Shown in pieces: positions 10,856-64,000 of a DNA stretch of 64,000 nucleotides. The DNA is taken from positions 18,172-82,171 of the forward strand of contig JAUCBJ010008828.1 of assembly GCA_032718475.1 (NCBI GenBank), given 5' to 3'. The notes beneath the pieces are model-generated. The model saw only the letters and a list, made by a program, of their open reading frames with translations. It searched no databases and was not told the DNA's origin. Made by a program: the position numbers and the translations under genes. Within the stretch, counting starts at the first letter, position 1; every line of letters starts with the position of its first letter. This DNA comes from Nemertoderma westbladi (Eukaryota > Animalia > Xenacoelomorpha).

Positions 10856-11384
10856 TGTGACGGGATCCAGGAGGGATCTCGATTTATCCGGTATTTTAGT
10901 TTACGCGTCCCCGCCGTGTATAAAGAGTAAACGAAACAGTGAATGAGTTCTGATGTTCGGTGTATAATAACTGATGGGTATAAGATATAGATATAGATAT
11001 GTGGAAGGCGGGATATGGTAACTAAAAGTCCCGTGCTCCCCTATCTAAACTAACTAACCTATGCTAGTACTACTGCATTGAGATAACTGAATTACTGATT
11101 AATAGGTTACTGATTATATTGCACGGTTGGCCTAATTACTACCTAATCGATGCCTTGCCCCCCTCTGATTGGTTGATACCCTTGTTGGCGCCCCGTGGAG
11201 TGTTCCCGTTCACTCCACCTGTACTCTCTGGGTTAGGGGTTTGGCCCCTGACCCTTTATTGTGTGCTTCCTTCCCACTCTTATTGGGATGGCACGAGTTG
11301 GTTAATTGCCCAATCTCGTGGCTCCCAATATTGCTTATCGGCTTATAACTTTATGGGGTGTTAGCGGGATTGAGTAAGCTAACA
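10856..11384 (-). repeat. 3' LTR of element A (529 bp)
   Basis: Direct repeat of 24271-24800; about 4 substitutions and 1 indel seen by eye. Confidence 0.95.
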
Positions 11385-15833: not shown

Positions 15834-18800
15834 CTAAGGTGCCCCTTCTAATAGACAACATTTACCTACAGCTCTCCTGTAGGTTTTTCTGTCCTTCGCA
15901 CCTATCTTTCCACCTATCCGCACTTCTACCGATCGGACTCTTCCGTCCTCGTCGGAGTAGGTGCCTACAACTCTCGCCAACTGCCACTGGTTGTTGATGA
16001 TAGTATCATCCGTAACGATTACGAGATCTCCCTCTCTTAACTCCCTGTTCGGCTTCCTCCACTTGCTTCGCTTATGGAGTGTGGGTAGGTATTCCTCGAC
16101 CCACCTCCTCCAATACTCTGCGCTTATTGCTTTAGCGACTTTCCAACTTTGGCGGGAGTGTATGTCATCTGGGTCTACACCCCGCATATCGATGGTCGCT
16201 GGCCTTTCCATCAGGAAATGGCTAGGCGTCAGCACGTCTAATGACTCAGGGTCATCATTCTCCGGATATAGCGGTCTGCTATTAATGATCCCCTCGCACT
16301 TCGCAAGTACTGTCCGTAAGACGTCCTCAGTGACCATGTGGGTGTTCATCAGCTTCGTCATTAGACGCTTTGAACTGCCCACTAGTCTCTCGACGCATCC
16401 TAGTGTATGTGGTGCATACGGCGTCCTTCTCTCCCACTTTACTTGTCGTCGTCTCATGGCTGCCCTGACTTCTTCTCCCTCCAGGATGTCCAAGGCCTCT
16501 GCCATCTCACTCTCTGCGCCCACAAAGTTGGTGCCGTTGTCGCTGTATATCACTGCGATCGTCCCACCTTTGCGGTCCCTAAATCTTTCTAAGGCGTTAA
16601 TGAACGCTGATGCGGTTGCATCTTGGGCGAGTTCTATCCCTACCGCCCGCGTATTGTTGCATACGAAGATAATGCCGTAGCGTTTCTCCGTGTGTCGCAT
16701 CACTTTGATCTTTATCGGCCCGAACATGTCCACACCGCAATGCGTAAATGGCGGGTCGTGCTGTCTTACCCTACTCGCCGGTAGTGGTGCCATCTCCTGT
16801 ACGGCTCGCTCCTTCTTCGCTCGTCGGCAGGTCTGGCACTGCCCCACTACCGCTTTAACCTTCTTCCTTAATTGTTTGACCCAATAGGTCCTCCTTATCT
16901 CTGTGAGGGTTCGGTTGGTGCCCCCGTGCAGTATCGATTTGTGGGAGTCCCATATAATCTGGTGGACTATTGGCGATCCTGTAGGAATGATGATGGGTTT
17001 CGGTGGTACCACTATGCTGTTGTTGTATCCCACCCTAGAATTCATTACTAGAATCCCGTCGTCATTGAGTTGTGGCGACAGCGTAATCAGCTCGCTGTCC
17101 CGTCGGATGTGCTGTTGGTTACCGACGCGTTCCACCTCGTCGCCGTAGTTCTTCCGTTGTTCATAGCGGATCACTGCCTTGGCCGCTCCTTCCAGATCTA
17201 TGGTTGTCCTGATTTTCTTGTCCTTGCCGACTCCCGCAAGGAAATTCCCGAAGGCTCTCCAATACGCCACTAGTTTCTTGGTCTTATACCAACTAGAACT
17301 GTAGCTGAGGAGTTTATCCGTTGGGTTATCGCACAGTTCCCTTCCTGGTTGCACGTCCCTAATCTCCCTCACCATCTGGGAGTATATCTCTTCTCCCTCT
17401 GAATCTCCCTCTTCTCCTTCTGATACTACTTCCGAGCCCGGGTCCACCTTCCTCATCGGCGGCCAGGCCTCCCTATCGCTCAGAAATTGTGGCCCATGTT
17501 GCCACAATACTTCCTTCTTCAGGAAAGTGTGGCGTTCCACGCCCCTCGACAGCAAGTCCGCTGGGTTCTCGTCTGTTGGGCAGTAGTGCCACCTTTCCAG
17601 TTCTGTGCTCGCCCTTATTTCGTCCACTCTATTCGCGACGAATATCGGGTATCTCGTCTTTTCGTTGTGTAGCCAACCAAGCACTACCATGGAGTCCGTC
17701 CAGTAGTGTGTCTCCACTATGTTGGGAATAGTATCCACTAGGTAGGCTGTGGCTCTTACTCCTAGTCTCGCAGCTGTCAATTCTAACTTGGGAACAGATG
17801 CTGAATCTGGGGGCGTTGACTTTGCTTTGCTAAAGGCTAGTCTGGGCCTGTGAGCCCCCTCTCGTTGTACTAAGTAGAGTGCCGCTCCGTACGCTTCCAA
17901 CGACGCGTCGGAGAACATGTGTAGGTCCAGATTCGTCATGTTCCCATCCGGGAAATACACCCTTGGCATGTTGTATGTTCCCATCTTCTCCAAGTTTCCT
18001 GTCCACTTGCTCCACTGTCTCTTGATTTCCTCTGGTACCTCTACGTCCCACTCATCTTTCAATTTGTATACTCTCTTGAGTATCTCTTTCCCCGTGACTA
18101 ATAATGGGGATGCTAGGCCTAGGGGATCGTATATCCTTGCTATATACGATACATAGCCCCTCTTCGTGTGGATGTCTGCGCCCTCCTGGCTCAGCTGATA
18201 CTTCAGTTCGTCTGTCTTTCTATCCCACACGATTCCCAATGCCTTCTGCTGAGATTCTGTTCTCTTAATCGCCATGTCCTGCCCTTTGGCTGTTGTGGGG
18301 TTATCCATGGTCGATTCTGGTTTCCTGTCCTCTATGGCTTTGATAAATTCTTCCGAACTGGATTGGAATTTGGTCAGGTTAAAGCCGGATCCTTTTAGGA
18401 TGTCGCGAACCTCGCGCCCTGTATCCAGTATCTCCTTAACCGTATTCCCAGACTCCATTCCGTCGTCTACGTAGAAGCCACGTCGAATCATATCGACGGC
18501 TCTACCGCTGTATCTATCTTCCTTCCCCTTTACTGTGTCTCTCACTGCCATAGTCGTCGTAAATGAAGACGACTTGGCCCCCATGTTCTGTACTATCATC
18601 TTATATGCTGGTATTATCGGCGGTTCTTCTTCGCCGTTATACCATAAGAAGCGTTGACTGTCGCTATCTTCTTCCGTTACACGGACTTGGTTGAACATGC
18701 CTTCTATGTCACACGTGAAGGCGTGTTTCCCATTTCGAAATCTAAGTAACACCTCTATGCCCGAATTGTAAATGTTTGGGCCTTCTAACAGGTAGTCGTT

Positions 18801-21800
18801 TAAGCACTTTCCGTCGGTCTTTGCCGATGCGTCGACTACCATCCTTAGTTTACCTTTCTTTGGATCTAAAGCCACGTGCAGTGGCAGGTAATATGTTCTA
18901 TCCGTGTTCGGCTCGTCGACCGGTAACTCCACGGCCCATCCTTTCTCGACGTACTTCTTAATCGTCCTGTGGATGTACTCATTCTTCTCGGGGCTCCGTT
19001 TTAGTGTTTGTTTCAGCTTGCGGAGTCTCGTGAACTGTCTGAGCAGTCTTTTAAGCTGCTCCTCTGCTCCCTCATCACCCATTTCCTGCATTGTTCCCGC
19101 GAACATGCATCCTGATGTCTCCGACATCCTAAATGGTATCTTACTCTTGATTGGACCACTCAGCGTCCACCCGAATGGTGTTAATATGGCCACCGGGTCA
19201 CTCTGCTTGTCTTCGCCGAAGACCGTTTGCATTCTTTCGTGGGCTGTTGGGCAGTCCATACCTACTATGATGGATACCTTCCTAACGTCCACGTCTGGGA
19301 TTGAGAAGTCAATGTTGTCCAGGAATTTGTACTGCTCAACCTCGATGTTGGTTGGTCGCCTGGCATTGATATTAATTGACTCTATCACTTGAATGGGGTC
19401 GATTGTTGCCCCATAGTCGCATCCTGGTGCCACTGCTGCAATTGCGCACCATCCTGTTCTCATCTCCAGGATCTCATCTTTGCTAGAGATGGTTGTTACC
19501 GCCATCCTGCTTGGCCTCGTTCTCAATCCTATCTCCTCGGCCACCCATTCCTCGACTAATGTGAAGGCAGCTCCACTATCAACCAGCATTAGTGTTGTTA
19601 CTGATCGATTGCCTTCCCCGATCACTCGTACTGGTACTACTCCAAGTAGCACCGTTCCTCTCTTCTTCGCCCCTACTGTGCTCGTCGCCATCGTTTGGCC
19701 TCTCCTTTGACCAAATTTCATTGGCTTCTCTTTGCACTCCCTTGCTCTATGTCCACTCATTACACATCGCGAGCAGATTTTATTGCTGAACGCATAATCT
19801 ATCTGATCTTGCCTAGGTAGCGCCTGCCAGTACCTGCAGTTCATAGTTTGATGAAGCGCATTTGCGTGTAGCTGACATTTGCTCTTTGGGTCGTAGCCCT
19901 CTTTATACAGTGCATTGCGTATCGCAGTTGCGTTCGTACCAAAGTCCCTACTATTCTTATTGTTTGGGTTTTGCCTATTGGACGTACTGGGGTTATGTTT
20001 ATTCGTGTTATTATTATTTCCCTGTCCATTCCATGATGTTGTCTTATCCTCGGCTAGCTGTGGACTTGCAGTCCCCTGCGTCGCTGCATACGGCAATGAT
20101 TGCCTAAGTCTCGGTAATGCGTTCGATGTGTTGTGCTCTGGTTTCGGTCTATGGTAGTCTGTCTTCGGTCCCTTTCCCAGGCTGTCTTCGCTATAGACTG
20201 GGTCAGTTATTAGTTCAGCCTCGTAGTTTAAGAAGTTTGACATTTCTTCTAAACCCGGTTCCGCACCCTTCTTATCTCGAGTAGAGAAGGCGATTTTTCT
20301 CCACTTGTTGCGCAGCCAGTTTGGTAGTGCCTGCGCTATCGTGGTGATGTTGTTGGACGCATTGAGCTCGTACGGCGCGTCTAGCGTCTTCAGCACGATT
20401 AGCGCCTTTTCGACTTTGTTAGCGAACGTCTTAATGCTAACGGGATTATCCTGCAGGCCACCCGATGTTATGCCCCTCAGCGTCTGCCTGATGATCTTGG
20501 CCGGGTGCCCGTATTCCCTATCCAGTGCCCGCCATGCTGTCGTGAAGCCGCCCTCTATTCCTTGATATTGCCTCACGATGTCGTATGCTGGGCCTCCCGT
20601 GTACACTTGTAGATACTTTAGGCACTCCGCCTGCGTCAAGTTTTTTGTTAGTATTTCGTTACTATACATGCGCCGAAACTGTAGATATTCTTCCGGCCTA
20701 CTCCCATCGAATTTGAATGGTTCCACTGGTGGTAGCTCGATCCTCGTTTTCAACGCATCGATCAACGTGGCCATCCCCATTGCCTGCGCTTCCAATGGAT
20801 TCGACGGGTGCTGTATAGTTTCCCCTGTCTGGTGCGGTTCATCCGTCCTATTTCTCGATCTTCTCTGACTTGGGTATGTCATCGGGGGTAGCGGCCCCCT
20901 CCATATCTCCGTGTCACACGACTTATTCTCATCCAAGGGTCTCGTTGTTCTTGCTCCTATCAGGGTAGATTGTTGATATTGTGATGGGGGAATGTCACCC
21001 TGCCCCCCCCCCACCGGTATGTTTGGTACTGGGGTTGATGTTAATATGTTGGGGCCCATGCACCTATCCGCAATAATTCCCCCCTCCCCTGGGTATATGT
21101 TATGTCCCTGCATGCTGTAGTCATACTGCTGTGCTGGTACCGGTATAGGCCTATCAGCTTCTGGCCTACCCGCCGGTATGTATTCCGCGACTTCCGGGTT
21201 TAATCCCGTTGTCCACGCTATCCTATCGCCTACATTGCCCCTCTCAGTATGGCCTATGGTATGTGCAGTAAGGCCTACAGTATGTCCTACAGTCTGCATG
21301 TGTTGTTCGGGATCGAAGTTTATTCTTCTCGAATAATCCTCCCCGCGGCTACCGTATTCTCGATCGGTAGGTATATCCCGTCGGAAAGTTTCTCTTCGAC
21401 CCCCCTCTCTACTGTTCTCATCTTCGTACCGGTACATCGCGTACCCCTCTCTCGGCGCGTAGTGCGCCTCGCCGGGTCGCATCCCTCCGGGGCGACGGCA
21501 ATCTCCCGGAGTCCGACCCCACTGACTCTCCGTTCTCATCTCGACTATCGACGGCTCGCTATCCGTCCTCGCTCTTCTATCGTTCGCGGCGATACTTCTA
21601 CTACTGTCTTCCTTTCTTCTCCTATCAGTGGAATATTCCCGCTCGTGAGATCTCTCGTCGACCTCCCGGTTAAACCCCACTGTTCTTCTTCCTTCCTCTG
21701 ATCGGGCTCGACGCTTCATCCGCCCTCTCGCGACGTCAACCCGGCTCTCTCTGCTCGGTTGCACGCCGCTGGGGATATCCGCAATCCCCCTATTACTTTC

Positions 21801-22622
21801 CGTCGCCGGTTGTTGCGGTTTACCTATTTCGGCCCTCGCATTATCCACTGACGGCTGTGGGACACTCTCTGCACCCCCCCTTTCGCCGCTAACTTGCTGT
21901 TGTGGGGTTCTCGTAGCCCCCCCCCAATCGCCACATCTAACTTCGCTACTCCTCACCTCGCTACTATATCCCTCTCCAGTCGACACATCAACCCTACCGC
22001 GGTCGGGTCTATTCACCCCCGCTTCTCCTCCTGCTATTGCGTGGCCTTCCAGGCCCTCTACTCCCTGTCTACCAACTACGTGGCCTACCAGGCCCTCTGC
22101 TCCCTGCCTACCAACTACGTGGCCTACCAGGCCCTCTGCTCCCTGCCTACCAACTACGTGGCCTACCAGGCCCTCATCTGCCTGGCCATATACGCCCGAC
22201 GCGTTTACATTAATAGCACCCGTATTGGAAACAGAATTAATTTGTCCGTTTGAAATAAAATCACTTGGATTATCTTGCGCGACTACACTATCTGAATTAT
22301 TTTGTAAATTCGGGCTCGCTGAATTATTTAAGTTATTTAGATTATTTTGTGTTATTGCATTACTTAAATTATTTTCTAAGTTCGAATTTCGGTTATTACT
22401 TTGATTAATTGGATTATTTTGCGTAGCTACATTAACATTAGAATTATTTTCTACACTAATATTAGGAATGTTCTTATTTAAATTTAAATTACTACCACTA
22501 GGTAAAGTATTGCCTGCAATAAAGGTTTGATTAGAATTGTCCCATACGGTACTATTAATATTAACCACGTCTACTGTACCATTATCATTATTACCCCCCC
22601 CCCCCCGCCCGTACGGTCGCAC
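15834..22622 (-). CDS. pol: BEL/Pao Gag-Pol polyprotein (Gag with zinc knuckles, aspartic protease, RT, RNase H, integrase)
   Basis: KFDG gag core, CSRCVMSGHRAREC, LVDSGA, DIEGMFNQV, FYVDD, FSDAS, WTDS, NPADLLSRG, HCGVDMFGP, SDNGTNFVGA, WRRWVEEYLPTL..RSKW. Confidence 0.95.
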   Translation of the reverse strand: MRPYGRGGGGNNDNGTVDVVNINSTVWDNSNQTFIAGNTLPSGSNLNLNKNIPNISVENNSNVNVATQNNPINQSNNRNSNLENNLSNAITQNNLNNLNNSASPNLQNNSDSVVAQDNPSDFISNGQINSVSNTGAINVNASGVYGQADEGLVGHVVGRQGAEGLVGHVVGRQGAEGLVGHVVGRQGVEGLEGHAIAGGEAGVNRPDRGRVDVSTGEGYSSEVRSSEVRCGDWGGATRTPQQQVSGERGGAESVPQPSVDNARAEIGKPQQPATESNRGIADIPSGVQPSRESRVDVARGRMKRRARSEEGRRTVGFNREVDERSHEREYSTDRRRKEDSSRSIAANDRRARTDSEPSIVEMRTESQWGRTPGDCRRPGGMRPGEAHYAPREGYAMYRYEDENSREGGRRETFRRDIPTDREYGSRGEDYSRRINFDPEQHMQTVGHTVGLTAHTIGHTERGNVGDRIAWTTGLNPEVAEYIPAGRPEADRPIPVPAQQYDYSMQGHNIYPGEGGIIADRCMGPNILTSTPVPNIPVGGGQGDIPPSQYQQSTLIGARTTRPLDENKSCDTEIWRGPLPPMTYPSQRRSRNRTDEPHQTGETIQHPSNPLEAQAMGMATLIDALKTRIELPPVEPFKFDGSRPEEYLQFRRMYSNEILTKNLTQAECLKYLQVYTGGPAYDIVRQYQGIEGGFTTAWRALDREYGHPAKIIRQTLRGITSGGLQDNPVSIKTFANKVEKALIVLKTLDAPYELNASNNITTIAQALPNWLRNKWRKIAFSTRDKKGAEPGLEEMSNFLNYEAELITDPVYSEDSLGKGPKTDYHRPKPEHNTSNALPRLRQSLPYAATQGTASPQLAEDKTTSWNGQGNNNNTNKHNPSTSNRQNPNNKNSRDFGTNATAIRNALYKEGYDPKSKCQLHANALHQTMNCRYWQALPRQDQIDYAFSNKICSRCVMSGHRARECKEKPMKFGQRRGQTMATSTVGAKKRGTVLLGVVPVRVIGEGNRSVTTLMLVDSGAAFTLVEEWVAEEIGLRTRPSRMAVTTISSKDEILEMRTGWCAIAAVAPGCDYGATIDPIQVIESININARRPTNIEVEQYKFLDNIDFSIPDVDVRKVSIIVGMDCPTAHERMQTVFGEDKQSDPVAILTPFGWTLSGPIKSKIPFRMSETSGCMFAGTMQEMGDEGAEEQLKRLLRQFTRLRKLKQTLKRSPEKNEYIHRTIKKYVEKGWAVELPVDEPNTDRTYYLPLHVALDPKKGKLRMVVDASAKTDGKCLNDYLLEGPNIYNSGIEVLLRFRNGKHAFTCDIEGMFNQVRVTEEDSDSQRFLWYNGEEEPPIIPAYKMIVQNMGAKSSSFTTTMAVRDTVKGKEDRYSGRAVDMIRRGFYVDDGMESGNTVKEILDTGREVRDILKGSGFNLTKFQSSSEEFIKAIEDRKPESTMDNPTTAKGQDMAIKRTESQQKALGIVWDRKTDELKYQLSQEGADIHTKRGYVSYIARIYDPLGLASPLLVTGKEILKRVYKLKDEWDVEVPEEIKRQWSKWTGNLEKMGTYNMPRVYFPDGNMTNLDLHMFSDASLEAYGAALYLVQREGAHRPRLAFSKAKSTPPDSASVPKLELTAARLGVRATAYLVDTIPNIVETHYWTDSMVVLGWLHNEKTRYPIFVANRVDEIRASTELERWHYCPTDENPADLLSRGVERHTFLKKEVLWQHGPQFLSDREAWPPMRKVDPGSEVVSEGEEGDSEGEEIYSQMVREIRDVQPGRELCDNPTDKLLSYSSSWYKTKKLVAYWRAFGNFLAGVGKDKKIRTTIDLEGAAKAVIRYEQRKNYGDEVERVGNQQHIRRDSELITLSPQLNDDGILVMNSRVGYNNSIVVPPKPIIIPTGSPIVHQIIWDSHKSILHGGTNRTLTEIRRTYWVKQLRKKVKAVVGQCQTCRRAKKERAVQEMAPLPASRVRQHDPPFTHCGVDMFGPIKIKVMRHTEKRYGIIFVCNNTRAVGIELAQDATASAFINALERFRDRKGGTIAVIYSDNGTNFVGAESEMAEALDILEGEEVRAAMRRRQVKWERRTPYAPHTLGCVERLVGSSKRLMTKLMNTHMVTEDVLRTVLAKCEGIINSRPLYPENDDPESLDVLTPSHFLMERPATIDMRGVDPDDIHSRQSWKVAKAISAEYWRRWVEEYLPTLHKRSKWRKPNRELREGDLVIVTDDTIINNQWQLARVVGTYSDEDGRVRSVEVRIGGKIGAKDRKTYRRAVGKCCLLEGAP

Positions 22623-23293
22623 CAGTTTTGAGTCTGTCGTGCGGTCCCTGTCAGTGGGGTATCAATAAATGTATCTACGGCCCCCGGCTCCCCAAAAATA
22701 CTCGAGCCGGCCCCGCTTTCAGACGGCGACGCTCGCACCAGTTGCAGCTCGTGCGCCCGTCTAATCTTATCTTCCGCAAGCACACTCTGGCGTCTCTTTA
22801 ATTCCTTGTGCTCTCGTTCAGCCTCTGCCATTCTCCTCTCACACTCCTGGGTGTCCCGGGCGGCCGACTCCGCTACACTCCTAATGCTCTCCCTTCGTCT
22901 CACCTCGCGCTCCTTGCGTTCCTTTTCCCTTCTCGCCTCATGTTCCTTGCGTTCCTTTTCCCTTCTCGCCTCATGTTCCTTGCGTTCCTTTTCCCTTCTC
23001 GCCTCATGTTCCTTGCGTTCCTTTTCCCTCCTCGCCTCATGTTCCTTGTGTTCCGCCTCACGCTCTTTGCGTTCCCTATCCTCCCTCGCCTCACGCTCCC
23101 TACACTCCTTTTCCTCTATTTCCTCACACTCCCTAAGGCTTCTCAAAGCCCTTTCGGCCCTCTCTCCGGTTTCTCTAATCAATGCCGCTTCCCTCGCTAA
23201 CCGCACTCTCCCCTCCTCTAACCGTTCCTCCATTTCCCTCTGACCTTGTTCTACCATGTTGAGACGGTATGCGGCACCTATCTCTCTCACCAC
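22571..23293 (-). CDS. Coiled-coil N-terminal Gag segment of element A (frameshifted from the main ORF at a poly-C run)
   Basis: Same strand, overlaps the main ORF at the homopolymer near 22594-22606; 33-bp repeat encoding HEARREKERKE. Confidence 0.6.
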   Translation of the reverse strand: MVREIGAAYRLNMVEQGQREMEERLEEGRVRLAREAALIRETGERAERALRSLRECEEIEEKECREREAREDRERKEREAEHKEHEARREKERKEHEARREKERKEHEARREKERKEHEARREKERKEREVRRRESIRSVAESAARDTQECERRMAEAEREHKELKRRQSVLAEDKIRRAHELQLVRASPSESGAGSSIFGEPGAVDTFIDTPLTGTARQTQNWCDRTGGGGGVIMIMVQ

Positions 23294-23328
23294 TCTTTCT
23301 TTCGCGGAGGATGTAGCAGACTTATCGG

Positions 23329-24260: not shown

Positions 24261-24270
24261 TTTTAGTTAC
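24261..24270 (-). promoter_or_regulatory. Non-tRNA primer-binding site candidate GTAACTAAAA (complementary to LTR 24433-24442)
   Basis: Abuts the 5' LTR, lacks TGG, and is a perfect inverted repeat of an LTR-internal segment. Confidence 0.7.
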
Positions 24271-24800
24271 TGTGACGGGATCCAGGAGGGATCCCGATTT
24301 ATCCGGTATTTTAGTTTACGCGTCCCCGCCGTGTATAAAGAGTAAACGAAACAGTGAATGAGTTCTGATGTTCGGTGTATAATAACTGATGGGTATAAGA
24401 TATAGATATAGATATGTGGAAGGCGGGATACGGTAACTAAAAGTCCCGTGCTCCCCTATCTAAACTAACTAACCTATGCTAGCACTACTGCACTTGAGAT
24501 AACTGAATTACTGATTAATAGGTTACTGATTATATTGCACGGTTGGCCTAATTACTACCTAATCGATGCCTTGCCCCCCTCTGATTGGTTGATACCCTTG
24601 TTGGCGCCCCGTGGAGTGTTCCCGTTCACTCCACCTGTACTCTCTGGGTTAGGGGTTTGGCCCCTGACCCTTTATTGTGTGCTTCCTTCCCACTCTTATT
24701 GGGATGGCACGAGTTGGTTAATTGCCCAATCTCGTGGCTCCCAATATTGCTTATCGGCTTATAACTTTATGGGGTGTTAGCGGGATTGAATAAGCTAACA
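24271..24800 (-). repeat. 5' LTR of element A (530 bp)
   Basis: TG...CA ends, followed by TSD CATAT. Confidence 0.95.
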
Positions 24801-39696: not shown

Positions 39697-40920
39697 TGTA
39701 AAAGCTTTTGCGTAATTAGCCGGTTATTATCCCCGTAAAGTACTCTGTGGTTGGTTTACCAGGCATAAAAAGGCCGTGTCCTTGCTGTACTGGTGTTTTG
39801 GAGGACATAAAAGCCATTTCTTCTGTATTTGTACTTTAGAGGACATAATCTGCAATTTCGTGACGTAAAAGCTCGATACTCTTGAAAACAGTGTCGCTAC
39901 CATGACGACGGCTAACGGCTGATATTGCCACGTTGCCCCATAGCCCTGCCTTCTGTATCTGCCAATAGGATTTGAGTTGGTTTTGATTTTGACCTATCAC
40001 AGATCTACTGAACTGAATTTCCTATCTGTATGCTCATTCTCTGTGGTGGGTGAGATCTTTGTAGAATAAGGGTAGCTGGTATTCTTATAGTTATTCTTAT
40101 CAGTTTTTAGTGTTGTTGGTGATTCTAAGCCAGGAAGAACGGCTTTAGCCCTACACTAGTAGGCTTAATTATAAGGACATATATCCGTTATCTGCATTTA
40201 TCACAACATAACATACCATACCTAATCAAACAACCTGTGCATACTTTATATTGTTATACTGCTATTTACTGTCAGTTCTTCATAATATGGTTGATGAATT
40301 ATTATATTTGGAATAACGATAAATAACCCCGAAACCCAATATTCTTGATATACCGAAGGTAGGAGAGAAGGGTTACATATAACAATTGTGACTTATGTTA
40401 AAGTGGTTTGAAGTGAATCTAATGTTATTTGATAGACCCTACATGATTCGGTCCGTGTTCCTTTTATATGTGACTAAAATCAGTGAAGATCGGCAGATTA
40501 GTGTGCAGTATTGTGCAGCATTGTGTATGAGTGAGACTGATAACGAAGCATTTCCTAAAGAATGCGCCATATATGTGAATTGTAACTAAGCCATATCGTT
40601 GTGAGTAGTTTAAGTCATAACTCTGTTTATATAGATAGAGCGCCACGTCCTAAAGGAACTGTTAATATTCCCCGAAGGTGAATAATATTGTCAGAGATTA
40701 TATAATACTGTCAGTCGAATAATACATTAGGCTTACATAGCAATACGATTAAGCTGTCGAAATCAATCTCCCGGGTATATCCAACGGGTGAATGATCGCG
40801 CACAGATTGGTTTCAACTAGTGTAGTGAATCAAATACTTGTTAGAGGCTAAAGCGATTTATTATCTAGAAGACATCCTAATTTGGCGGGTTAAACTGCCA
40901 AAGGTCTGAAAGCGCGAACA
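39697..40920 (+). repeat. 5' LTR of element B
   Basis: Direct repeat of 50786-52009; only 2 differences noticed. Confidence 0.95.
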
Positions 40921-40931
40921 ATAACGGATAT
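40921..40931 (+). promoter_or_regulatory. Non-tRNA primer-binding site candidate ATAACGGATAT (complementary to LTR 40181-40191)
   Basis: Abuts the 5' LTR, lacks TGG, and is an 11-nt perfect inverted repeat of atatccgttat. Confidence 0.72.
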
Positions 40932-41049
40932 TTAGTCTGTATTGCAGTGTAGGCATTAAATACAGTTTAATATTGTTCTGGTAAGAACAATAACGGATAT
41001 AGCTTCTTTATTGCAGTAAGCAATAAAGTTGAAAGTACCGGTTGACCGG

Positions 41050-41925: not shown

Positions 41926-43254
41926 TTTATTATTCAGAGTTTATGCGATTATTCGCAACATTCATATCCCCAAGATTATTCCTACAGTAATTGTGTTTGT
42001 TATACATACCGTTATAGTTAAACTAACCCCGGTACTATACGGGCTGCTCGGCGTAGGTAAAGACTGGTGATTTTGTGCACCGGTCACTCCAGCAGATACC
42101 GTGGTTCTTTTAGCTGTTCAAGTATTTTTAACTACTGATTATTTGTTATACAAGTACTTGTACCTAATTTAGGGTTTAGTGTACAGTACTTTCCGAAAGT
42201 AATTATTGTAGGCATTATATTTGTGTTGTAAAGTGGTTGATAGGCACATACGTTAGCTCTATTAACTTCTAGGTAGGAACACTCCGTGATACATAACGTA
42301 GTACCTATAGCGATACGGCTATAGGTCGTCAGGCGGTGGTATTTTCCTATCTGGACAGCGCAGTGTATTTACTACTACTTATTATTTTCAAATACCGTAG
42401 TAACCTGTCCGTTGTAATAACCAGATTTCTAACCCTTTGTTAGGCTGGTTTGTAGACTTCTTGTAAAATTACCCTGGAAATTCGTATTTTGTGTTTTTGT
42501 AAATTTTTGTGTTTATTTAGAGATTGTAATCTCACCCGAATTGTACGTAATTAGTAGTATTAAGTAACTTAGGTAAATTAGCATTATTTGTTTTAGTGTC
42601 CTATAAGTAACACTTCACTGAAAGCGCACCGCTTTGTGTAGTGATTACTCCCCAGAAATAATAACATTTATTTCAAACATTGACAAAAACCCATTTCAAC
42701 GGGTATATATATATTATAAATCAACTCAAACGATTTATAAATAGTAGGCCTGCCATACACCCATTAGGTCTCAATATCAGTTGGACTACTGCTCAAATAA
42801 CGGTAATAAAGTAAGTAAAGTAACCAAGTAACCCTAAAATTCAGAAATTCAATTATTTAAAATAATTGGTATACCGGTATTTACGATAGGCCTATTATCT
42901 TTATTTCTATAAATTTTAGGTTGAAATCATACCGGTACTCTGTAATTAATTCTAGTCTGTAATTATACTTATATATATACACTATAAGTGTAAACTGCAT
43001 ACCGGTATTCATGATAGGCCTATTATATATTTATATATATTTGTGCTAAAATTACCTACCGGTATTCTGTGATAAACTAGTCTGTAATAATACTTATATA
43101 TACTATAAGCATACCGGTATTCTAATATATTATATATATCACGCTACATTGAGTAGCAGTATCGGTAATTAATTACTAGGCTAACAGTGATACTGAATTA
43201 CTAGACTTGCTTTAACTGTAATATAGCAGTAGGCATTCAACTGTACCATCAAAC

Positions 43255-46200
43255 ATGTCTGACACAACCCAATCACTGTCGGATAGTCTCCTAGATAGTG
43301 TTAGAATGACTGTTAGACAGTGTCTTAAAAAGATCAGTGACCCAGATCCAAGTATAGAACATCCTAGATCCAAGTCGAAGTCACCTCCTGCTGTAAGAAA
43401 GGCCATCCCTACTGTAGTAATCTCAGACCCTAGGCTAGTCCAACATCGTAGGTCTATCATTGGCACTCGGGCCCAAGTCAAGCGGGATCAAGAAGCAGCG
43501 GAACCTCAACAACCCGCGAGCCAAGAACTTACTTCTCAACGGCCCGATAGCTCCAGTAGTTCGGATACTGTTGAGCGGACGCCCGAACGCGGAGCGAAGA
43601 TGGCGGATAAGGTTTATGATGAGCGGCCAACCTATGAAGAATCAACCGACGCCACTTCTTCTCAAGAAGAAAGCGAAGTGACAGCAGAGAAACCGCATAA
43701 GAGGGATGCCATTGACATTTATCTGTCAGACTATCAACGTTTTTTAGGTGATGACGAGTTGAGGAGAAGGTTAGAGGGACTTAGCCCTAATAGTGAAGGA
43801 ACCAAGCTTGTGTTGGATGCCATCGATGTGGAAATGAGGGCTGCGAATCAGGCTAAATTTGATGAACAACTCCGCATCACACGAGTCCAGGAAGAACAAG
43901 TAAAGAAAAAACGTATAGAAGACAGAAAGGCAGCGGCGGTAGCAGCAGCAGTGGCAGCTGCAGAAGCAGAAACAAAAGCGGCAGTAGCAGCAGCAAAAGC
44001 AGCGGCCGAAGCAGAAACAAAAGCGGCAGCGGCAGTGGCAGCGGCAGAGACAAAAGCGGCAGTAGCGGCAGCGGAGGCGGTGGCCGAAGCGGAAAGAAAA
44101 GCGGCGGAGGCAGTGGCAGAAGCCGAACGGAGAGCGACTGAAGAAACCACCCAATTAGAATTGGAAAACATTCAGGAGAATCAAGACTGCATAAATAAAC
44201 AGTTAACAGCTAGTAATATGCAGATGATGAATCGATCTACTCCCAAAAGACAGGGATATACATCATCTGAGGAAGGCGATACCACCGATACTGAAGGCAA
44301 GGGAAATAGATCTCGTCTAAGTAGACGTAAAAGAACATTCCACCGTCAGAAATTGCCTGATTTGCCTCCAGCTGTTAGAAGGCAACTAAATAATACCAAC
44401 TTAGGTAGTGCAGAGCCCACAGACCAAATAATTAAAATAGAAAGACTCCCTACTATAGTAGATGAGCCTGAAATAATTAGGCCTGTTCTTGAAATCACCC
44501 CTTCGGTGATAGACACACCTGTGCTCCCTGAAACTACCTCTAAATTCCCTCTGCATAGCACTAAGCTACCTGTGCCCCGTAGAACTGCCCAGGAGACAGT
44601 TCAGGTTCTGGACCCCGAGCGAAATACTCCTGATTTGTCGCCCGTTGTCCCTCGTCCGCCCGCTACAACGTTGGCGACTCCCGCTTCGGCGGTCGAATGG
44701 GTGGACGAGAGAAGGCGGGGGATGGATCTCCTGCTCGGGCAGATGCAGGAGACTGTTCAGCAATTTAAGGGCACAGTAAGGGAAAGTAGGCTAGAGTTGC
44801 AAGAAGTGCAGCAAAGTATCGCGCTAGAACGCGATAAATTAGTAAATACCCAAAAGGGTATACCACCACCCTCTGTAACAATGTGTCAACCTGTTAGGTC
44901 TGAAGTATCGCATGCGCAAGGTGTGGAGCCTACACGCATCTATACTGCTAGCGAAGTAGAAACTCCTATAGTGAACCCTATTAAGGGTAATTATAGACCT
45001 GTTGATAATGACATTCCCTATAGAACTGATCATAATCCGAGAAATTTATATACCGATAACTCGATATTAAATAACACGATGGCCCAAGAAAGTTTTACGC
45101 GTCAAATGGCTAGAACCGAAGCCCGGCAAGCGGTAAAGGTGGGAGAGATCGTCAAGTTCAATGGAGATGAGATGAAATGGTTACCTTTTAATGAATATTA
45201 CAAAGATAACATACAGAACTCTGTACTATCTAATGGAGAAAAACTTAGATACCTCATCGAGTGCTTGGAAGGATCTCCCAAGTCAATGGCGTTAAAATTT
45301 ATTGGACATCCAGATGGATTAAGACAAGTTTGGGATACACTAAACATCAGGTATGGTAATAGGACTAACATAGCTAGGTATTTATATGCGAAATTAATGG
45401 CGCCCCGAAAGTTTCTTAGCAGCGGGATTATAGAGTTTTCCGATGAGATTCAGGAGATCTGTAGACAACTAGATTGGTTAGGTAAGTCTCATGAATACCA
45501 GAATTCTATGGTTGTAGGAGCCTTAGCATCTACTTTGCCCAAGGGTGGAGTAGGTACACGCTGGGACAAGAAGGTGTTATATATGATGGAACAACAACAA
45601 CGAGACCCTACCATGGCTGATCTCATGTCATTCTTGGATAGCGAGGTGAAATTACAGCTCATAAAGCAGTCCAGAGAGAAGACAGCGGAAAGTAAGGTAA
45701 GTGAGAAACCCGTTTCTAGGAGAAGGGTAACACCAGTATGTTATACCGACGACGGTGAAAGCCAAACTTCTCAAGGAGAGGACAGCGGGAAAGACACTGA
45801 CAGATCTTATTATGTCAATAAAATGCCTAAAGGTCAGGTAAGTAAATCCGAGTCTCGACCCAATGACAGAAGGGAACCGGTACAAAAAACCCTTCCTACG
45901 TCTCCTAAAAGAATTCAGGTGAGAAAGCCCGAGGAAAGAACAAGTGTGCACCACATAGCACAGGTTAAAGTAAGTAACATCAAGCCGAAATGTGTGCTGT
46001 GCGACGGGCCCCACCGTTTAAATGCGTGTGATAAATTCTTGAGGAAATCACTAAAGGATAGACGTGAAGTCATGTGGGATAAGCGGTTGTGTTATAATTG
46101 CCTCAGACGAGGACACCAACGGCGAACCTGTTACTCCGACGCAAGGTGTGCAAAGTGCGGCGCAAAACATCATATCTTGTTGCACACGGAATTCGAACGA

Positions 46201-47730
46201 AACAGCCCGAGTCAGGTAAGTGAGTCCGAACTACATGTCCAATTCAGTGATGTGAACGACACTGATCAATCTGAGATGGAAGGATTCTATACGGACGAGT
46301 TCTCCGACGAAAACGAATCCTGTTACTTAATAAACACCACCGCAGTGTATCGAGCACTCATGTATGAGAAAGACACAGACAGCGACCTCACCCTAACTAC
46401 TTCAGATCAACAACCATCTTGGAAAGCGCCAACTTCCAATATAGGAATCCGAGAATTTCCTGTAGTCCAGTTACGGGTCCACGGACCTCAGAAGAGCTAT
46501 ATAGTGAACGCCCTCCTGGACTCCGGTAGCACAGGAACATTCATCGATAAAGAACTAGCCGAAGTCATCTTTGCTGGACAACCCAAGTTCCGAACCAAGC
46601 TAAACATGTCAGGGATCATGCAGGTTTGGAATTCTACTGTAGCTGCCGACTATTATATAGGTGAGTTGTCCACTCCACAGGATAAACTAGGAGAATACAG
46701 TATAAGGTCAGTAAAAATGGTGGCAATAAAGAACTTCGCTACCACCCAAGTGGAACCTTATAATTGGGACGAAGATGATCATGCCCAACAACTTAACATC
46801 CCTAGATTCGACACCGATTATCCTGGAGTACAAATATTAATCGGTCAAAACGCGCATGAGGCGCTGGAGACATTAGAGAAACGACCTACTCAACCGCAAC
46901 CACTTCAGACCTATGCGGTAAGAACTAGAGTAGGTTGGTACCTTACTGGACCTTCCCGTAGAACGCTCAGAGAAAGACTGCTTCAAGATCGCGTCTGCCA
47001 GGTGAGTGAATGGGAAGATGATACTAGTGAGGGAGACGACCCAACTGAGGGAACACCATACTCCTCAGATAATGACGATATTAGCTCCAATGTAGATCAA
47101 TGGAGATATTGCCCCAAGAAGTTTAATCCAACTGACATCGCTTCCAGAGGAGCAACTCCTCAAGAACTGACAGATACTACAGACCGGTTAGGTGAACCCG
47201 ACTTCCTGAGTAAGGAGGATGAATGGCCTCCCCATCTTACTCCGACTGAGATTAGACCAGCCAAGGGAGCGGAGAAAGTTAAACCTAAAACCCGGACGGG
47301 TGGAGCGGAGTTATTTGAACCCGGGATAGATCTGTCGGTATTACATATTGCCAGGGACGACGCCGTGGATCTGGACCTCCCCACCGCGAGTGGATCCTTC
47401 ATGAAGATCAGAGAGAGCGATTGGAGCTCTGGAACATCAGACGTCTCGCAGGGACTCTCACCTCTCCTGCAGAGAGCGACGGACCACTATAGCTCCTGGA
47501 ATCGGCTTTGTAAGGCCGTCGTGTACTTAGAGCGATGTTTCTATCGTCACTATTCCAGGACGAAGAGGAAACCTGGAATTGTATTCGGGATGCAGCGACT
47601 CAATCGCCCAGCTGGTCGTTTGTGTTTACCGGAAGGGAATGGAGGACTCTCCGGAAACTGTGGAAGGCAAGATTCTCTTCCCACGACCACCTCCCTAATC
47701 CTTCAAACATCTAGGGACTCCATAACGTAA
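43255..47730 (+). CDS. gag: BEL/Pao Gag-protease polyprotein lacking RT, most of RNase H and integrase
   Basis: KFNGD..W..F, KLRYLIECLEG, CVLCDGPHRLNAC, CYNCLRRGHQRRTC, CAKCGAKHHILLH, ALLDSGS, then jumps to QWRYCP...NPTDIASRG; no YVDD. Confidence 0.9.
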   Translation: MSDTTQSLSDSLLDSVRMTVRQCLKKISDPDPSIEHPRSKSKSPPAVRKAIPTVVISDPRLVQHRRSIIGTRAQVKRDQEAAEPQQPASQELTSQRPDSSSSSDTVERTPERGAKMADKVYDERPTYEESTDATSSQEESEVTAEKPHKRDAIDIYLSDYQRFLGDDELRRRLEGLSPNSEGTKLVLDAIDVEMRAANQAKFDEQLRITRVQEEQVKKKRIEDRKAAAVAAAVAAAEAETKAAVAAAKAAAEAETKAAAAVAAAETKAAVAAAEAVAEAERKAAEAVAEAERRATEETTQLELENIQENQDCINKQLTASNMQMMNRSTPKRQGYTSSEEGDTTDTEGKGNRSRLSRRKRTFHRQKLPDLPPAVRRQLNNTNLGSAEPTDQIIKIERLPTIVDEPEIIRPVLEITPSVIDTPVLPETTSKFPLHSTKLPVPRRTAQETVQVLDPERNTPDLSPVVPRPPATTLATPASAVEWVDERRRGMDLLLGQMQETVQQFKGTVRESRLELQEVQQSIALERDKLVNTQKGIPPPSVTMCQPVRSEVSHAQGVEPTRIYTASEVETPIVNPIKGNYRPVDNDIPYRTDHNPRNLYTDNSILNNTMAQESFTRQMARTEARQAVKVGEIVKFNGDEMKWLPFNEYYKDNIQNSVLSNGEKLRYLIECLEGSPKSMALKFIGHPDGLRQVWDTLNIRYGNRTNIARYLYAKLMAPRKFLSSGIIEFSDEIQEICRQLDWLGKSHEYQNSMVVGALASTLPKGGVGTRWDKKVLYMMEQQQRDPTMADLMSFLDSEVKLQLIKQSREKTAESKVSEKPVSRRRVTPVCYTDDGESQTSQGEDSGKDTDRSYYVNKMPKGQVSKSESRPNDRREPVQKTLPTSPKRIQVRKPEERTSVHHIAQVKVSNIKPKCVLCDGPHRLNACDKFLRKSLKDRREVMWDKRLCYNCLRRGHQRRTCYSDARCAKCGAKHHILLHTEFERNSPSQVSESELHVQFSDVNDTDQSEMEGFYTDEFSDENESCYLINTTAVYRALMYEKDTDSDLTLTTSDQQPSWKAPTSNIGIREFPVVQLRVHGPQKSYIVNALLDSGSTGTFIDKELAEVIFAGQPKFRTKLNMSGIMQVWNSTVAADYYIGELSTPQDKLGEYSIRSVKMVAIKNFATTQVEPYNWDEDDHAQQLNIPRFDTDYPGVQILIGQNAHEALETLEKRPTQPQPLQTYAVRTRVGWYLTGPSRRTLRERLLQDRVCQVSEWEDDTSEGDDPTEGTPYSSDNDDISSNVDQWRYCPKKFNPTDIASRGATPQELTDTTDRLGEPDFLSKEDEWPPHLTPTEIRPAKGAEKVKPKTRTGGAELFEPGIDLSVLHIARDDAVDLDLPTASGSFMKIRESDWSSGTSDVSQGLSPLLQRATDHYSSWNRLCKAVVYLERCFYRHYSRTKRKPGIVFGMQRLNRPAGRLCLPEGNGGLSGNCGRQDSLPTTTSLILQTSRDSIT

Positions 47731-50777: not shown

Positions 50778-50785
50778 GGGAGCGG
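50778..50785 (+). promoter_or_regulatory. Polypurine tract of element B
   Basis: GGGAGCGG directly before TGTAAAAG. Confidence 0.75.
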
Positions 50786-52009
50786 TGTAAAAGCTTTTAC
50801 GTAATTAGCCGGTTATTATCCCCGTAAAGTACTCTGTGGTTGGTTTACCAGGCATAAAAAGGCCGTATCCTTGCTGTACTGGTGTTTTGGAGGACATAAA
50901 AGCCATTTCTTCTGTATTTGTACTTTAGAGGACATAATCTGCAATTTCGTGACGTAAAAGCTCGATACTCTTGAAAACAGTGTCGCTACCATGACGACGG
51001 CTAACGGCTGATATTGCCACGTTGCCCCATAGCCCTGCCTTCTGTATCTGCCAATAGGATTTGAGTTGGTTTTGATTTTGACCTATCACAGATCTACTGA
51101 ACTGAATTTCCTATCTGTATGCTCATTCTCTGTGGTGGGTGAGATCTTTGTAGAATAAGGGTAGCTGGTATTCTTATAGTTATTCTTATCAGTTTTTAGT
51201 GTTGTTGGTGATTCTAAGCCAGGAAGAACGGCTTTAGCCCTACACTAGTAGGCTTAATTATAAGGACATATATCCGTTATCTGCATTTATCACAACATAA
51301 CATACCATACCTAATCAAACAACCTGTGCATACTTTATATTGTTATACTGCTATTTACTGTCAGTTCTTCATAATATGGTTGATGAATTATTATATTTGG
51401 AATAACGATAAATAACCCCGAAACCCAATATTCTTGATATACCGAAGGTAGGAGAGAAGGGTTACATATAACAATTGTGACTTATGTTAAAGTGGTTTGA
51501 AGTGAATCTAATGTTATTTGATAGACCCTACATGATTCGGTCCGTGTTCCTTTTATATGTGACTAAAATCAGTGAAGATCGGCAGATTAGTGTGCAGTAT
51601 TGTGCAGCATTGTGTATGAGTGAGACTGATAACGAAGCATTTCCTAAAGAATGCGCCATATATGTGAATTGTAACTAAGCCATATCGTTGTGAGTAGTTT
51701 AAGTCATAACTCTGTTTATATAGATAGAGCGCCACGTCCTAAAGGAACTGTTAATATTCCCCGAAGGTGAATAATATTGTCAGAGATTATATAATACTGT
51801 CAGTCGAATAATACATTAGGCTTACATAGCAATACGATTAAGCTGTCGAAATCAATCTCCCGGGTATATCCAACGGGTGAATGATCGCGCACAGATTGGT
51901 TTCAACTAGTGTAGTGAATCAAATACTTGTTAGAGGCTAAAGCGATTTATTATCTAGAAGACATCCTAATTTGGCGGGTTAAACTGCCAAAGGTCTGAAA
52001 GCGCGAACA
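50786..52009 (+). repeat. 3' LTR of element B
   Basis: Direct repeat of 39697-40920, followed by TSD TACTG. Confidence 0.95.
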
Positions 52010-53821: not shown

Positions 53822-55446
53822 CTTGCTACTCTCTATCCATGATCCAAGGTACTGGAATTCAACGACCTTCCTTAGTTGATTATTATCAATGGTTGTCAAG
53901 TTTCCATCAACATTAAATGTCATGAATTCGGTCTTGGTAGCATTTATATGCAATCCAACCTCCTTAGCAGCCCTCTCCACTTTATTTAGTAGAAGCTGTG
54001 CATCTGCTAGCGTATTAGAGAGCAGGGCGATGTCATCCGCAAAGTCTGTGTCTGTGACTGTAGTTGCCGGATATCTACTACTTCTGCGTTCTTGAAGTGA
54101 GAATCCCAGATCTTCACCCTTTATTGATGTCCACATTGCGTAATCCAGCACAATTACAAATAGTAATGGTGCTAATGTGTTACCTTGCAGTACGCCAGCC
54201 AGGATTGAGAAAAACTCAGTTTCACCATCTGGTGAGAGTACCTGCGCTTCTGTGTCACAATGCCAGCAACAATTTCTTCTCGTATTCCATAAGCTCTTAT
54301 GATTTCAAGCATTTTACCTCTATGGATGGAGTCGAGTGCCTTCTTGAAGTCCACAAAAGTCAAGACTGCGGGGAGATTCTTTGACTTTATTCCTTCAATC
54401 CGTCTCCCTAATGCAAGTATCTGAGCTATTGTTGATCTACTTGGTCGAAATCCGTTTTGGCTCTTACGCAGTAGTTTATCTATGTGAGGCCTAATCCTAT
54501 ATAGAATCATTTTATTGTATATTTTGGCAGCTACCACAATCAGACAGATCCCACGATAGTTTGTTGGTATGCCGAGGTCTCCTTTCTTGGGGAGAGGCTT
54601 TAGTTGACCTTTAGTCCAAATTGGTGGTGGCTTTTCCCCTTTTAACATCCGGTTGCAAACATTCAATAATGGTCTGTTTAGCACTCCGGTTTTTCTGGGA
54701 TTTCATCTAATCCACTCGCTTTATTATTGGACATGATTTTAATGCTTCTTTGGAGTTCGGCAGCTGTGAAGTCCCCTGTTTCTATAGGTAGTGTCTTGTC
54801 ATATATTTTCCTTGTAGGGCTGACCTCGATGTTTGGTGGCTTCCCAAGCAAGTTGCTGAAGTATTTTTCCACTTCCCAACACGTTCTTCAGGACTATCGG
54901 CTTTGAGGCGCCCCTTTGCACAACTTCTCCAACCAGATACCTCATTTACAGTTTGCCAGGTAAGTCTTGATTGTTGCTGTATGTGAGCAGTTGTAATTGT
55001 TTCAGTTTTATCCTGTATGTACTTTTCCTGGCTGATGTTGCAGGCCAATTTAAGATCGTCCTTAGCTTTCTCAACCTTGTTAATGTTTTCGGTTGTTGGT
55101 TGTTCGGTTTTAACTTTATAGGCTATCTTAAGATCTTCTCTCTTACAAGTAACCTCAGAGTTTTGCAAGGGCACATACTGTTTTCGTTTGGGTTTCTGGG
55201 GGATATGCCTCTTAGCTGATTCCTTGTGGGCTGTTGTTTTATTCTGGTATATTGGGTCGGTGGATTGGTCTTCATCCATTGACTGAAGTGCTTCAAAGCG
55301 GTTTTGAATTTCTACTGTATAAGCATCCTTTACAGCATTGTCAGTTCTGAGTTTCTCCCAGTCATAGTTGATTTGCTTGCTTGTCCTGGGTTTGCTGGCT
55401 CTCAAACTGAGTCTGATCTCTGCAGTCGCAATTCTGTGTCCGAACC
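53822..55446 (-). pseudogene. Degraded internal fragment of the RTE family at 31970-35331
   Basis: High nucleotide identity to ~32500-34145 with frameshifts (ORFs 53819-54151, 54172-54684, 54782-55405). Confidence 0.88.
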
Positions 55447-56255
55447 TCTGGTTACTGATTTAAATTCTACTTATAGCGCTCATTAATTGCACTATGTAAA
55501 AATTAATCAAGCATAAAAAATATACAGTATATCTTTATCTATATCTATAGAGACTGATGTTTTGGTTCGTCAGCACCACTTTCGAGCAGTTTTAATGATT
55601 TCATAATATCTCCCAATTTCTTTAATGAAAATTATAAAAAACATGGGTTTATTAATTTTTTTTTAGTTTTGAATATTTTTTACAAAATTGCCAATTATCA
55701 GAAATAGAAAATGAAAATACTAAAAAATATGATGAAAATTATCATGTTTGTTCCAAAAAATGTTGTATCGAAAAATAAAAATGGAAAATAACGGAGGAGT
55801 AGTCTTTTTAGCTAAATGTATTAAATCTCATACCCGCCGATAGGGGGCGCCAAAATTTTTTTTAATCTTTATTTACTTTAGTTCATTCTCTTTTCGATGG
55901 TATATAGTTTTCTATGCATTTTTCAACCACATTAGAGATATAGACAAATATAAAAAAACACCAGGTGGGGTTACGCCCTCCCCCTCTCCCCCCCCCCCCC
56001 CCCCCATTAAGGAAGGAAACGTCCAATACAGTTACCCCAAAGGAAACCAATAACGGAAACCATAACGGGATAACCTGGACCCACGATCTGCCCTGAAGGT
56101 ATATTTATATCGAACTACTTGCTAAACGACGACGAGAGAGACGAGTTTGGTCTGGTGGTGGCGGAACGCTGCCCCAGTTTCAATGATGCCGAACCCTTCA
56201 TCAACCATATCGGGGGACGATTAACGCACTAACAAGATATCAATATACTCAACTA

Positions 56256-62200: not shown

Positions 62201-62437
62201 TCTACTGTCTGGGTGGCTGTGGTCCGGGGGTCTAATGTCTGGTTGGCTGTTTTCCGGGGGTCTACTGTCTGGGTGGCTGTTGTCCGGGGGTCTGATGTCT
62301 GGGTGGCTGTTGTCCGGGGTCTACTGTCTGGGTGGTTGTTGTCCGGGGGTCTACTGTCTGGTTGGCTTTTGTCCGGGGGTCTACTGTCTGGGCTGCTGTT
62401 GTTCGGGGGTCTACTGTCTGGGTGACTGTTGTCCGGG
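56256..62437. repeat. 30-bp GT-rich satellite (~205 units) with ~2.1 kb higher-order repeat
   Basis: Consensus GTCTGG(G/T)TGGCTGTTGTCCGGGGGTCTA(C/A)T. Confidence 0.97.
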
Positions 62438-64000
62438 TGTTCGCGCTTTCAGACTTTTGGCAGTTTAACCCACCAAATTAAGATGTCTTCTAGATATTAA
62501 ATCAGTTTTTAGTCTATGACAAGTATTTGATTCACTACACTAGTCGAAACCAATCCGTGCGCGACCATTCACCCGCTGGAGATTCCCGGGAGATTGGGTT
62601 CGACGGTTTAATTTTATTGCTATGTAAGCCTAATGTATTATTCGACTGACAGTATTATATAATCTCTGACAATATTATTCACCTTCGGGAATATTAACAG
62701 TTCCTTTAGGACGTGGCGCTTTATCTATATAAACAGAGTTATGACTTAAACTACTCACAACGATATGGCTTAATTATAATTCACATATATGGCGCATTCT
62801 TTAGGAATTGCTTCTTTAACAGACTCACTCATACACAATGCTGCACAATACTGCACACTAATATGCCAATCTTCACTGATTTTAGTCACATATAAAAGGA
62901 ACACAGACTGACTCATGTAGGGTCTATCAAATAACATTAGATTCACTTCAAACCACTTTAACATAAGTCACAATCGTTATTGGTAACCTTTCTCTCTTAC
63001 CTTCGGTATATCAAGAATATTGGGTTTTCGGGGTTATTTCTCGTTATTCCAATATAATAATTCATCAACCAATATAATGAATAACCGACAACAAATAGCA
63101 GTACACAGTATCGATTGAGCAGGTAATTTTAGCAGTTTCAGCAGTTATTAAAAACCGTGTGTCAGCAGTCAGTGTATTCCCAGATCAGTGATTCCATGAG
63201 TTTGATCGGTATGTCAGTTAAAGGATATATGCCCTTATAATTAAACCTACTAGTGTAAGACTAAAAACTGAAAACACGGAGGTGCCAAAAGCCGGTTCTT
63301 AGGCTCTGGGCAAAAAACATAACACTGAACTACTGAGTTTCTGTATATACCTCCAACACAGAGACAACAAACGCTCTGATTGGTCAACCTGAACAACGAG
63401 AGAACAAAGAAACAAAGAAACGTCGACGTGGCAATATCAGCTGCTAGCCGTCGTCATGGTAGCGACACTGTTTCAAAGTATCCAGCTATTGCGTCACGAG
63501 ATTGTGGATTATGTCCTCTAAAGTACAAATACAGTACAAATACATAAGAAATGACTTTTATGTCCTCTAAAACACCAGTACAGCAAGGACACGGCCTTTT
63601 TATGCCTGGCAAACCAACTACAGAGTACTTTAAGGGAAAATAACCGGCTAATTACGCAAAAGCTTTTACACCGCTCCCAGAAAATGGGATTTAAGTCTAT
63701 AAAATATAACAAATCACAGTTTCTAAAATATAAAGATACTCTAAACAGTTAGCCTTTCTTACGCAGACGGCGTTTACGCAGTTTTTTGAGGCTAGCAAGA
63801 GTCCTTTTCTCTTTGGGGGGAGCCACTTTACTAGGAGGGCCATAACTCCTGGGTGAAGGGTGCAATATGATTGCATTAAAAGGTTTGGGTTTACGGTCGG
63901 TGTCTCGTCCATTTCGATATGCTTCTCCTCGAGCTGATTTTCCTCCGCTTGTCATGGGATACGTTCGTCCAAAACTCTCGCAGAGAATAGGGTTTTCTTG
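62438..64000 (-). mobile_element. 3' end of a BEL/Pao element related to B (3' LTR 62438-63670, PPT 63671-63678), abutting the satellite
   Basis: Reverse complement of the B LTR ends (tgttcgcgctttcagac ... agcttttaca) with ccgctccc; internal sequence matches 50460-50785. Confidence 0.9.

Follow-up and report, generated by a model that had tools for sequence, protein, structure and literature searches.

A candidate self-primer and its binding site in BEL/Pao elements of Nemertoderma westbladi

To our knowledge, self-primed reverse transcription has been established only for the Tf1/sushi group of the Ty3/gypsy elements. In Tf1 the primer consists of the first 11 nucleotides of the transcript, and the cut is made by RNase H. 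A passage in PMC5443660 cites Lin and Levin (1998) for the self-priming of Tf1, and a passage in PMC3601003 ascribes hairpin priming to some chromoviruses. The BEL/Pao elements (Belpaoviridae, Semotivirus) are described in a part of PMC8742986 as being primed by a host tRNA, through an 18-nt site complementary to tRNA-Arg or tRNA-Gly. We found no report of self-priming in BEL/Pao in the main texts of open full-text papers, and the terms 'tRNA', 'primer binding' and 'priming' are all absent from the main text of the principal BEL/Pao survey, of 2011 (PMC3118150).

Here we analysed a stretch of 64,000 nucleotides (the window) from contig JAUCBJ010008828.1 of the Nemertoderma westbladi assembly. 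It contains two elements, called A and B below, which share several characters with BEL/Pao. A encodes a DUF1759 gag, the Pao peptidase A17, an integrase and DUF5641, and B carries DUF1759 and is similar to A. In each of them the LTRs are of the TG..CA type, the target duplication is 5 bp long and a purine tract precedes the 3' LTR. They differ from the described members of the superfamily in the site that follows the 5' LTR, which lacks TGG and finds its match in the LTR of the element itself. Judged by the 3'-CCA rule only, neither A nor B has an 18-nt site complementary to a host tRNA.

In these respects A and B resemble the Tf1/sushi group. Tf1 and Tf2 of Schizosaccharomyces pombe likewise lack a tRNA-type site, about 11 nt after the 5' LTR being complementary to the element's own LTR-derived RNA, and there as here pairing appears to be kept by matched changes between relatives. 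The superfamily, however, is BEL/Pao and not Ty3/gypsy: Pfam gives DUF1759 in both A and B, with Pao peptidase A17 and DUF5641 in A, and no Ty3/gypsy-type pol. The position of the LTR sequence complementary to the site (hereafter the block) is a further difference from Tf1. In B it lies 485 nt into a 1224-nt LTR, 729 nt before the LTR end, and in A about 63 nt past the start predicted from sequence motifs. From these positions it follows that the primer would be a longer 5' fragment, or that the block may lie outside the 5' end of the RNA.

LTR elements of the window

The coordinates of the two elements, of a third LTR (C) related to B, and of the candidate priming sequences are collected in Table 1.

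Table 1. LTR elements of the window and their blocks, islands and candidate primer sites (position 1 is the first letter of the window)
Feature	Position	Strand	Basis
A 3' LTR, G-rich purine tract just before it	10856..11384	-	self-BLAST
A gag-pol frame, 2275 codons: DUF1759, Peptidase_A17, Integrase_H2C2, rve, DUF5641	15837..22661	-	Pfam
A primer site (candidate), GTAACTAAAA, from the first base after the LTR	24261..24270	-	10/10 complementary to the A block
A 5' LTR, 530 nt	24271..24800	-	self-BLAST; target-site duplication CATAT
A block, TTTTAGTTAC, LTR position 359-368	24433-24442	-	complementarity to the site
B 5' LTR, 1224 nt, TG..CA	39697..40920	+	self-BLAST, junctions
B island, including TATAAGG at 40170-40176	40144..40194	+	alignment
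B block, ATATCCGTTAT, LTR position 485-495	40181..40191	+	complementarity to the site
B primer site (candidate), ATAACGGATAT, from the first base after the LTR	40921..40931	+	11/11 complementary to the block
Second copy of the LTR end (GAACA) and site in B	40985..41000	+	sequence; public contigs
B open frame, 1502 codons: gag (DUF1759), zinc knuckles, protease	43222..47730	+	Pfam, BLASTP
B 3' LTR, block at 51270-51280	50786..52009	+	self-BLAST, junctions
C, 3' LTR of a B-family element, 1233 nt	62438..63670	-	self-BLAST, junctions
C island, 51-nt kept module between two replaced segments	63215..63265	-	MAFFT alignment, 45/51 identical to B
C block, ATATCCTTTAA in the element's sense, two substitutions relative to B	63218..63228	-	MAFFT alignment

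The gag-pol frame of A is uninterrupted, and A is an autonomous BEL/Pao element. Its interior (12000-24000) has a G+C content of 46-57%, against 33-40% in the surroundings, and many long open frames overlap on both strands upstream of its gag.

The two LTRs of B show 2 differences in 1224 nt and are flanked by the target-site duplication TACTG. A short purine tract ending in GGGAGCGG stands just before the 3' LTR. BLASTP matched B to the gag, the protease and a post-RNase H motif of A, at 23-37% protein identity. Between 43222 and 50784 B contains gag and protease but no detectable similarity to reverse transcriptase, RNase H or integrase, even by comparison with A. Its LTRs are nevertheless near-identical, public DNA runs contain the family in abundance, and B has the look of a non-autonomous element mobilised in trans. 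No long open frame is present in the 3 kb that follow the frame of B, and the sequence at its insertion point (about 39500-39696) seems, by eye, to be LINE-like reverse transcriptase sequence.

The internal part of C starts at 63671 and extends past the end of the window. The segment 63634-63998, including some 330 nt to the right of the LTR, is 94% complementary to the 3' end of the internal part of B (50458-50822), and these 330 nt carry the same short purine tract as B. C is a 3' LTR, and its 5' LTR and primer site therefore lie beyond position 64000. One LTR is accordingly present in three copies in the window (B 5', B 3' and C), and a 25-mer common to all three occurs exactly 3 times, against 0 in 100 shuffles. 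No copies of the LTR end or of the leader were found in the window beyond those of B and C.

The outer end of the C LTR adjoins a long tandem array (about 56130-62437) with a period of 30 nt and a sub-period of 15 nt, a G+C content of about 57% and a strong strand skew; a contig of public run X3 spans this junction. Elsewhere in the window, LINE-type elements (RVT_1 with an endonuclease domain) were seen at 2-1690, 6130-8823, 31979-35113 and 53823-55446. A unit of about 4.8 kb is repeated at 25848-30626 and 31232-39137, its second copy being interrupted by one LINE-type element.

Complementarity at the LTR ends of B and A

At 40920 the 5' LTR of B comes to an end with ...GAACA; the 11 nt beyond are reverse-complementary, without a mismatch, to positions 40181-40191 within the LTR. 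Read on the minus strand, the blocks of both B LTRs (40181-40191 and 51270-51280) give the letters of the site, ATAACGGATAT. When the LTR was shuffled by dinucleotides, 20 of 20000 sequences gave an 11-nt match at offset 0; with offsets of 0 to 5 all allowed, the number was 61 of 20000. TGG is absent from the start of the site, and by eye none occurs within about 50 nt downstream. Lacking TGG, the site therefore cannot pair with the CCA end of a tRNA.

The same arrangement recurs in A, although the LTRs of the two elements show no resemblance by eye. The LTR of A ends in ...CACA and is followed by GTAACTAAAA, a site that likewise does not start with TGG; its 10/10 match at offset 0 was reached in 24 of 20000 shuffles. 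What can be observed directly is thus that block and site pair, that the register is exact with respect to the LTR end, that chance would rarely give such a match, and that a second family has it too.

We also folded the RNA of B from the block to the site. The helix between the two closes the MFE and the centroid fold alike, with a z of -4.0 and 0 of 20 shuffles folding as well; the folded RNA starts at the block by choice, so that terminal pairing is favoured by construction.

The island of the C LTR and a compensated site in public contigs

The first-pass annotation of this DNA had described the LTR at 62438-63670 as strongly different from B around the block, with the block itself retained. 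Its coordinates and letters proved exact, and self-BLAST and MAFFT both agree with it. Self-BLAST aligns C with B over some 240 nt at the start of the LTR (39696-39933, 88.4% identity) and some 665 nt at its end (40257-40920, 92.5%). The middle ~320 nt are unalignable, one ungapped stretch of 51 nt excepted. In the MAFFT alignment, 0-15 of 25 columns are identical on either side of this island, against 22 and 19 of 25 inside it. No other ungapped match between the diverged middles of the two LTRs scores as high (B 40144-40194 against C 63265-63215): the island reaches 33, whereas 200 shuffles averaged 8.6 and did not exceed 13. Its identity (88%) is that of the alignable LTR ends, and the flanks therefore look replaced and not fast-diverged.

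The island was found in at least four flank contexts, in B, in C and in other public contigs, and the alignments of these contigs break at its edges. At 63267, contigs of runs X3 and X5 show loose ends and X4 a joint, and at 63215/63216 X4 shows a loose end and X5 a joint. Recurring with sharp edges between differing flanks, the island is therefore a retained module. The block stands at its 3' edge, 3 nt from the break. The sequence right after the block (63130-63215 and contigs) has been swapped for loosely similar stretches in at least four subfamilies; these replaced stretches carry repeated ATATC/TTATC motifs, and the hotspot of turnover begins 3 nt past the block.

The first-pass annotation had further proposed that the block is under constraint. 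This holds for the island, which was kept as a whole in the various flank contexts, but not for the block in particular, which is its least conserved part: 2 of the 6 differences between the islands of B and C fall in the 11 nt of the block and 4 in the remaining 40 nt. The retention of these 40 letters, which lie upstream of the block, calls for a separate explanation. At the two substituted places of the C block, no variants occur among 40 of the 48 contig rows.

Two other features of the island were considered. TCAGT, which stands at its 5' edge in B and C, may or may not be a conserved start: in two further subfamily contexts, seen as loose ends at 63267, it is missing. A hairpin in the island was given no weight, since the island RNAs fold no better than shuffles (z of -0.18 to -0.35).

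Contigs of four public runs were aligned on the C LTR, and contigs were also aligned on B. None of the runs is on record as RNA; we guess that X4 is. From the letters of the C block, the first-pass annotation had predicted that the site of this subfamily reads TTAAAGGATAT, as does the + strand at 63218-63228. This is the site found in another copy: in one 83-nt contig of run X4, TTAAAGGATAT stands between 43 nt of LTR end and a stretch of 29 nt that agrees letter for letter with the family leader. The site of this contig is thus related to the block, has no TGG and differs from the ATAACGGATAT of B. It had been predicted beforehand, from sequence alone, and is borne out in independent public data by this one contig.

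The LTR end that the contig carries is a near-identical one, and in the alignment on C the contig shows as a loose end before 62438. In the alignment on B the same contig is record 20, and its second piece, 45 nt at 40985-41029, has exactly 2 other letters. Of this piece, 5 nt belong to the end of the LTR, 11 to the site and 29 to the leader; in view of the site letters read on C, its two other letters would correspond to the changes in the site. By simple counting, 1 in 495 possible two-letter changes is the exactly complementary one. One compensated pair is thus observed directly, the two changes of the C block being matched by two changes of the site; it suggests a single case in which pairing was kept by compensatory change, in contigs so short that block and site are not linkable within one element.

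On the island of C, the C block is the sole type seen in X4 contigs, at a depth of 23.5, compared with 16.6 for the contig with the compensated site, these being per-contig figures and therefore weak hints. X4 is labelled organism B, unlike the best-matching runs (organism A), and the compensated site is represented by one contig. In the organism-A runs X1 and X3 no changes are listed at 40921 and 40925, though C-type LTR parts are common there. The two changes of X4 itself are likewise unlisted; matches near the ends of pieces were evidently dropped, and the blank in X1 and X3 is thus not evidence of absence.

The site varies among copies of the family, while the LTR end and the leader are kept. 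The variant ATAACGGTTAT was found in 13 contigs of X1 and 8 of X3, and ATAACAGTTAT in one contig of X4, after a slightly different LTR end. There may be uncompensated cases among these variants. A further form of the site, GTAACAGTTTAT, is present in contigs aligned to 40921-41006.

B itself carries GAACA and the site twice, 69 nt apart, and the 58-nt spacer that separates the sites is a direct duplicate, though a diverged one, of the beginning of the leader (local alignment score of 24). We rejected the idea that the spacer is an inverted copy of the island, left as a fossil of read-through into the primer, the score of 16 being equalled in 71 of 500 shuffles. The common form of the family in public contigs has one site, with the leader immediately behind it (15 contigs of X1), and the form with the 69-nt repeat is in the minority.

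A metagenome scan for the LTR end with either form of the site gave 11 loci, which were discarded as a 20-nt chance match in a conserved, apparently bacterial gene; none of the 11 has an LTR block upstream. The site with the leader gave 0 matches in genome contigs and 0 in viral contigs.

Self-priming and other uses of the pair

We interpret the block and the site as a matched pair, probably a self-primer and its binding site. For A and B, self-priming of the Tf1 type is the best-supported reading and seems to us rather likely, in a superfamily described as tRNA-primed. In such a mechanism the RNA of the element would fold back and the block would pair with the site. The RNA would then be cut at the 3' end of the block, as by the RNase H of Tf1, and minus-strand synthesis would set out from that end, exactly at the U5 border. 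Any change in the block would be passed on to the site when the primer is copied into the plus strand. Priming, the cut and the place of the block in the transcript are what we infer from the observed pairing. The U5 border of an LTR is made by the 3' end of the primer, and the complementarity begins at the first base past this border in two unrelated families; for this reason the block is, in our reading, the 3' end of a primer.

A comparable process is known as primer-site imprinting in retroviruses, where a changed primer rewrites its site. It provides a route to the co-variation of block and site without separate selection. In retroviruses, however, the primer is a host tRNA, which holds the site constant, whereas an element-encoded primer here would drift freely. 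With no host tRNA to fix the sequence, block and site can drift together. Since an element-encoded primer would be copied into the plus strand and the site thereby rewritten, the two would co-vary almost automatically and the sites of subfamilies would diversify. Such rewriting would explain the two changes of the C block together with the two complementary site changes in the C-like copy.

The place of the block in the transcript was considered from sequence motifs. In A, TATAAT at LTR position 267 and TCAGT at 295 predict a start at 297; the block would then occupy +63 to +72, in the part of the 5' LTR that is transcribed. In B, TATAAGG lies 11 nt upstream of the block and is the only TATA-like motif near the island. 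A start directed by it would be expected about 5-10 nt past the block, which would thus belong to U3 and be missing from the RNA 5' end. The motifs for the transcript start in B and C disagree, TATAAGG standing 11 nt before the block and TCAGT at the 5' edge of the island. A capped 5' fragment of some 50-80 nt may serve as the primer, or the U3 copy at the 3' end of the RNA may do so, or the helix may be structural only.

In the structural alternative, the pairing would serve a long-range RNA structure, such as 5'-3' joining via the U3 copy, strand transfer, or the control of packaging or translation, and the primer would be something else. We consider this unlikely, though less so than the two alternatives that follow. 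A start directed by TATAAGG would leave the block only in the 3' U3, the helix of B is stable whatever its use, and covariation backs pairing and not priming as such. A mere helix, however, would not need its register at the first base after the LTR in two unrelated families, and no alternative primer site is visible, with no TGG near the LTR end by eye.

A second alternative is that the island is the core promoter of the LTR, kept for transcription, and that the 11-nt match and the contig are coincidental, or that the contig comes from an element with another block. It seems improbable to us. The island does hold the sole TATA-like motif nearby, the block makes up 11 of its 51 nt and is less well conserved than the other 40, and a single contig represents the compensated site; but both changes in that contig are exactly complementary, chance gives the match of B in 20 of 20000 shuffles and the independent match of A in 24 of 20000, and no TATA motif stands beside the block of A. 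A promoter role of the island is, moreover, compatible with a primer role of the block. Finally, internal or half-tRNA priming in copia and Ty5 is a precedent for a host small RNA or tRNA fragment with the sequence of the block acting as primer, the LTR block being a mere resemblance, but this is the least credible explanation of all, as it would take one host RNA that happens to match the LTR of subfamily C and another that happens to match the LTR of the unrelated element A, and we found 0 tRNA genes in the window (ARAGORN) and 0 Rfam matches over the LTR and leader of B (39600-41300).

Self-priming might extend beyond these two elements, a more tentative proposal that we put forward with some doubt. 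The BEL/Pao elements of this animal, and perhaps much of the superfamily, might not use tRNAs but private LTR-RNA primers ending in a block of 10-11 nt. With the site rewritten in each cycle, the pair would drift freely and subfamilies would acquire private primer codes, and copies without reverse transcriptase, like B, would spread as long as the pair matches. If this were true, a whole animal superfamily would be free of dependence on host tRNA, and primer sites would be a fast-evolving marker of subfamilies. LTR-annotation tools that require a tRNA-type site would then systematically miss or mis-score such elements.

The RNA of A gave a different fold from that of B. In its MFE structure the block pairs with a look-alike of the site in U5 and not with the site, and the fold is no better than shuffles (z of -0.57). 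This near-copy of the A site, GTAAACTAAAA at LTR position 482, could be a decoy or a switch.
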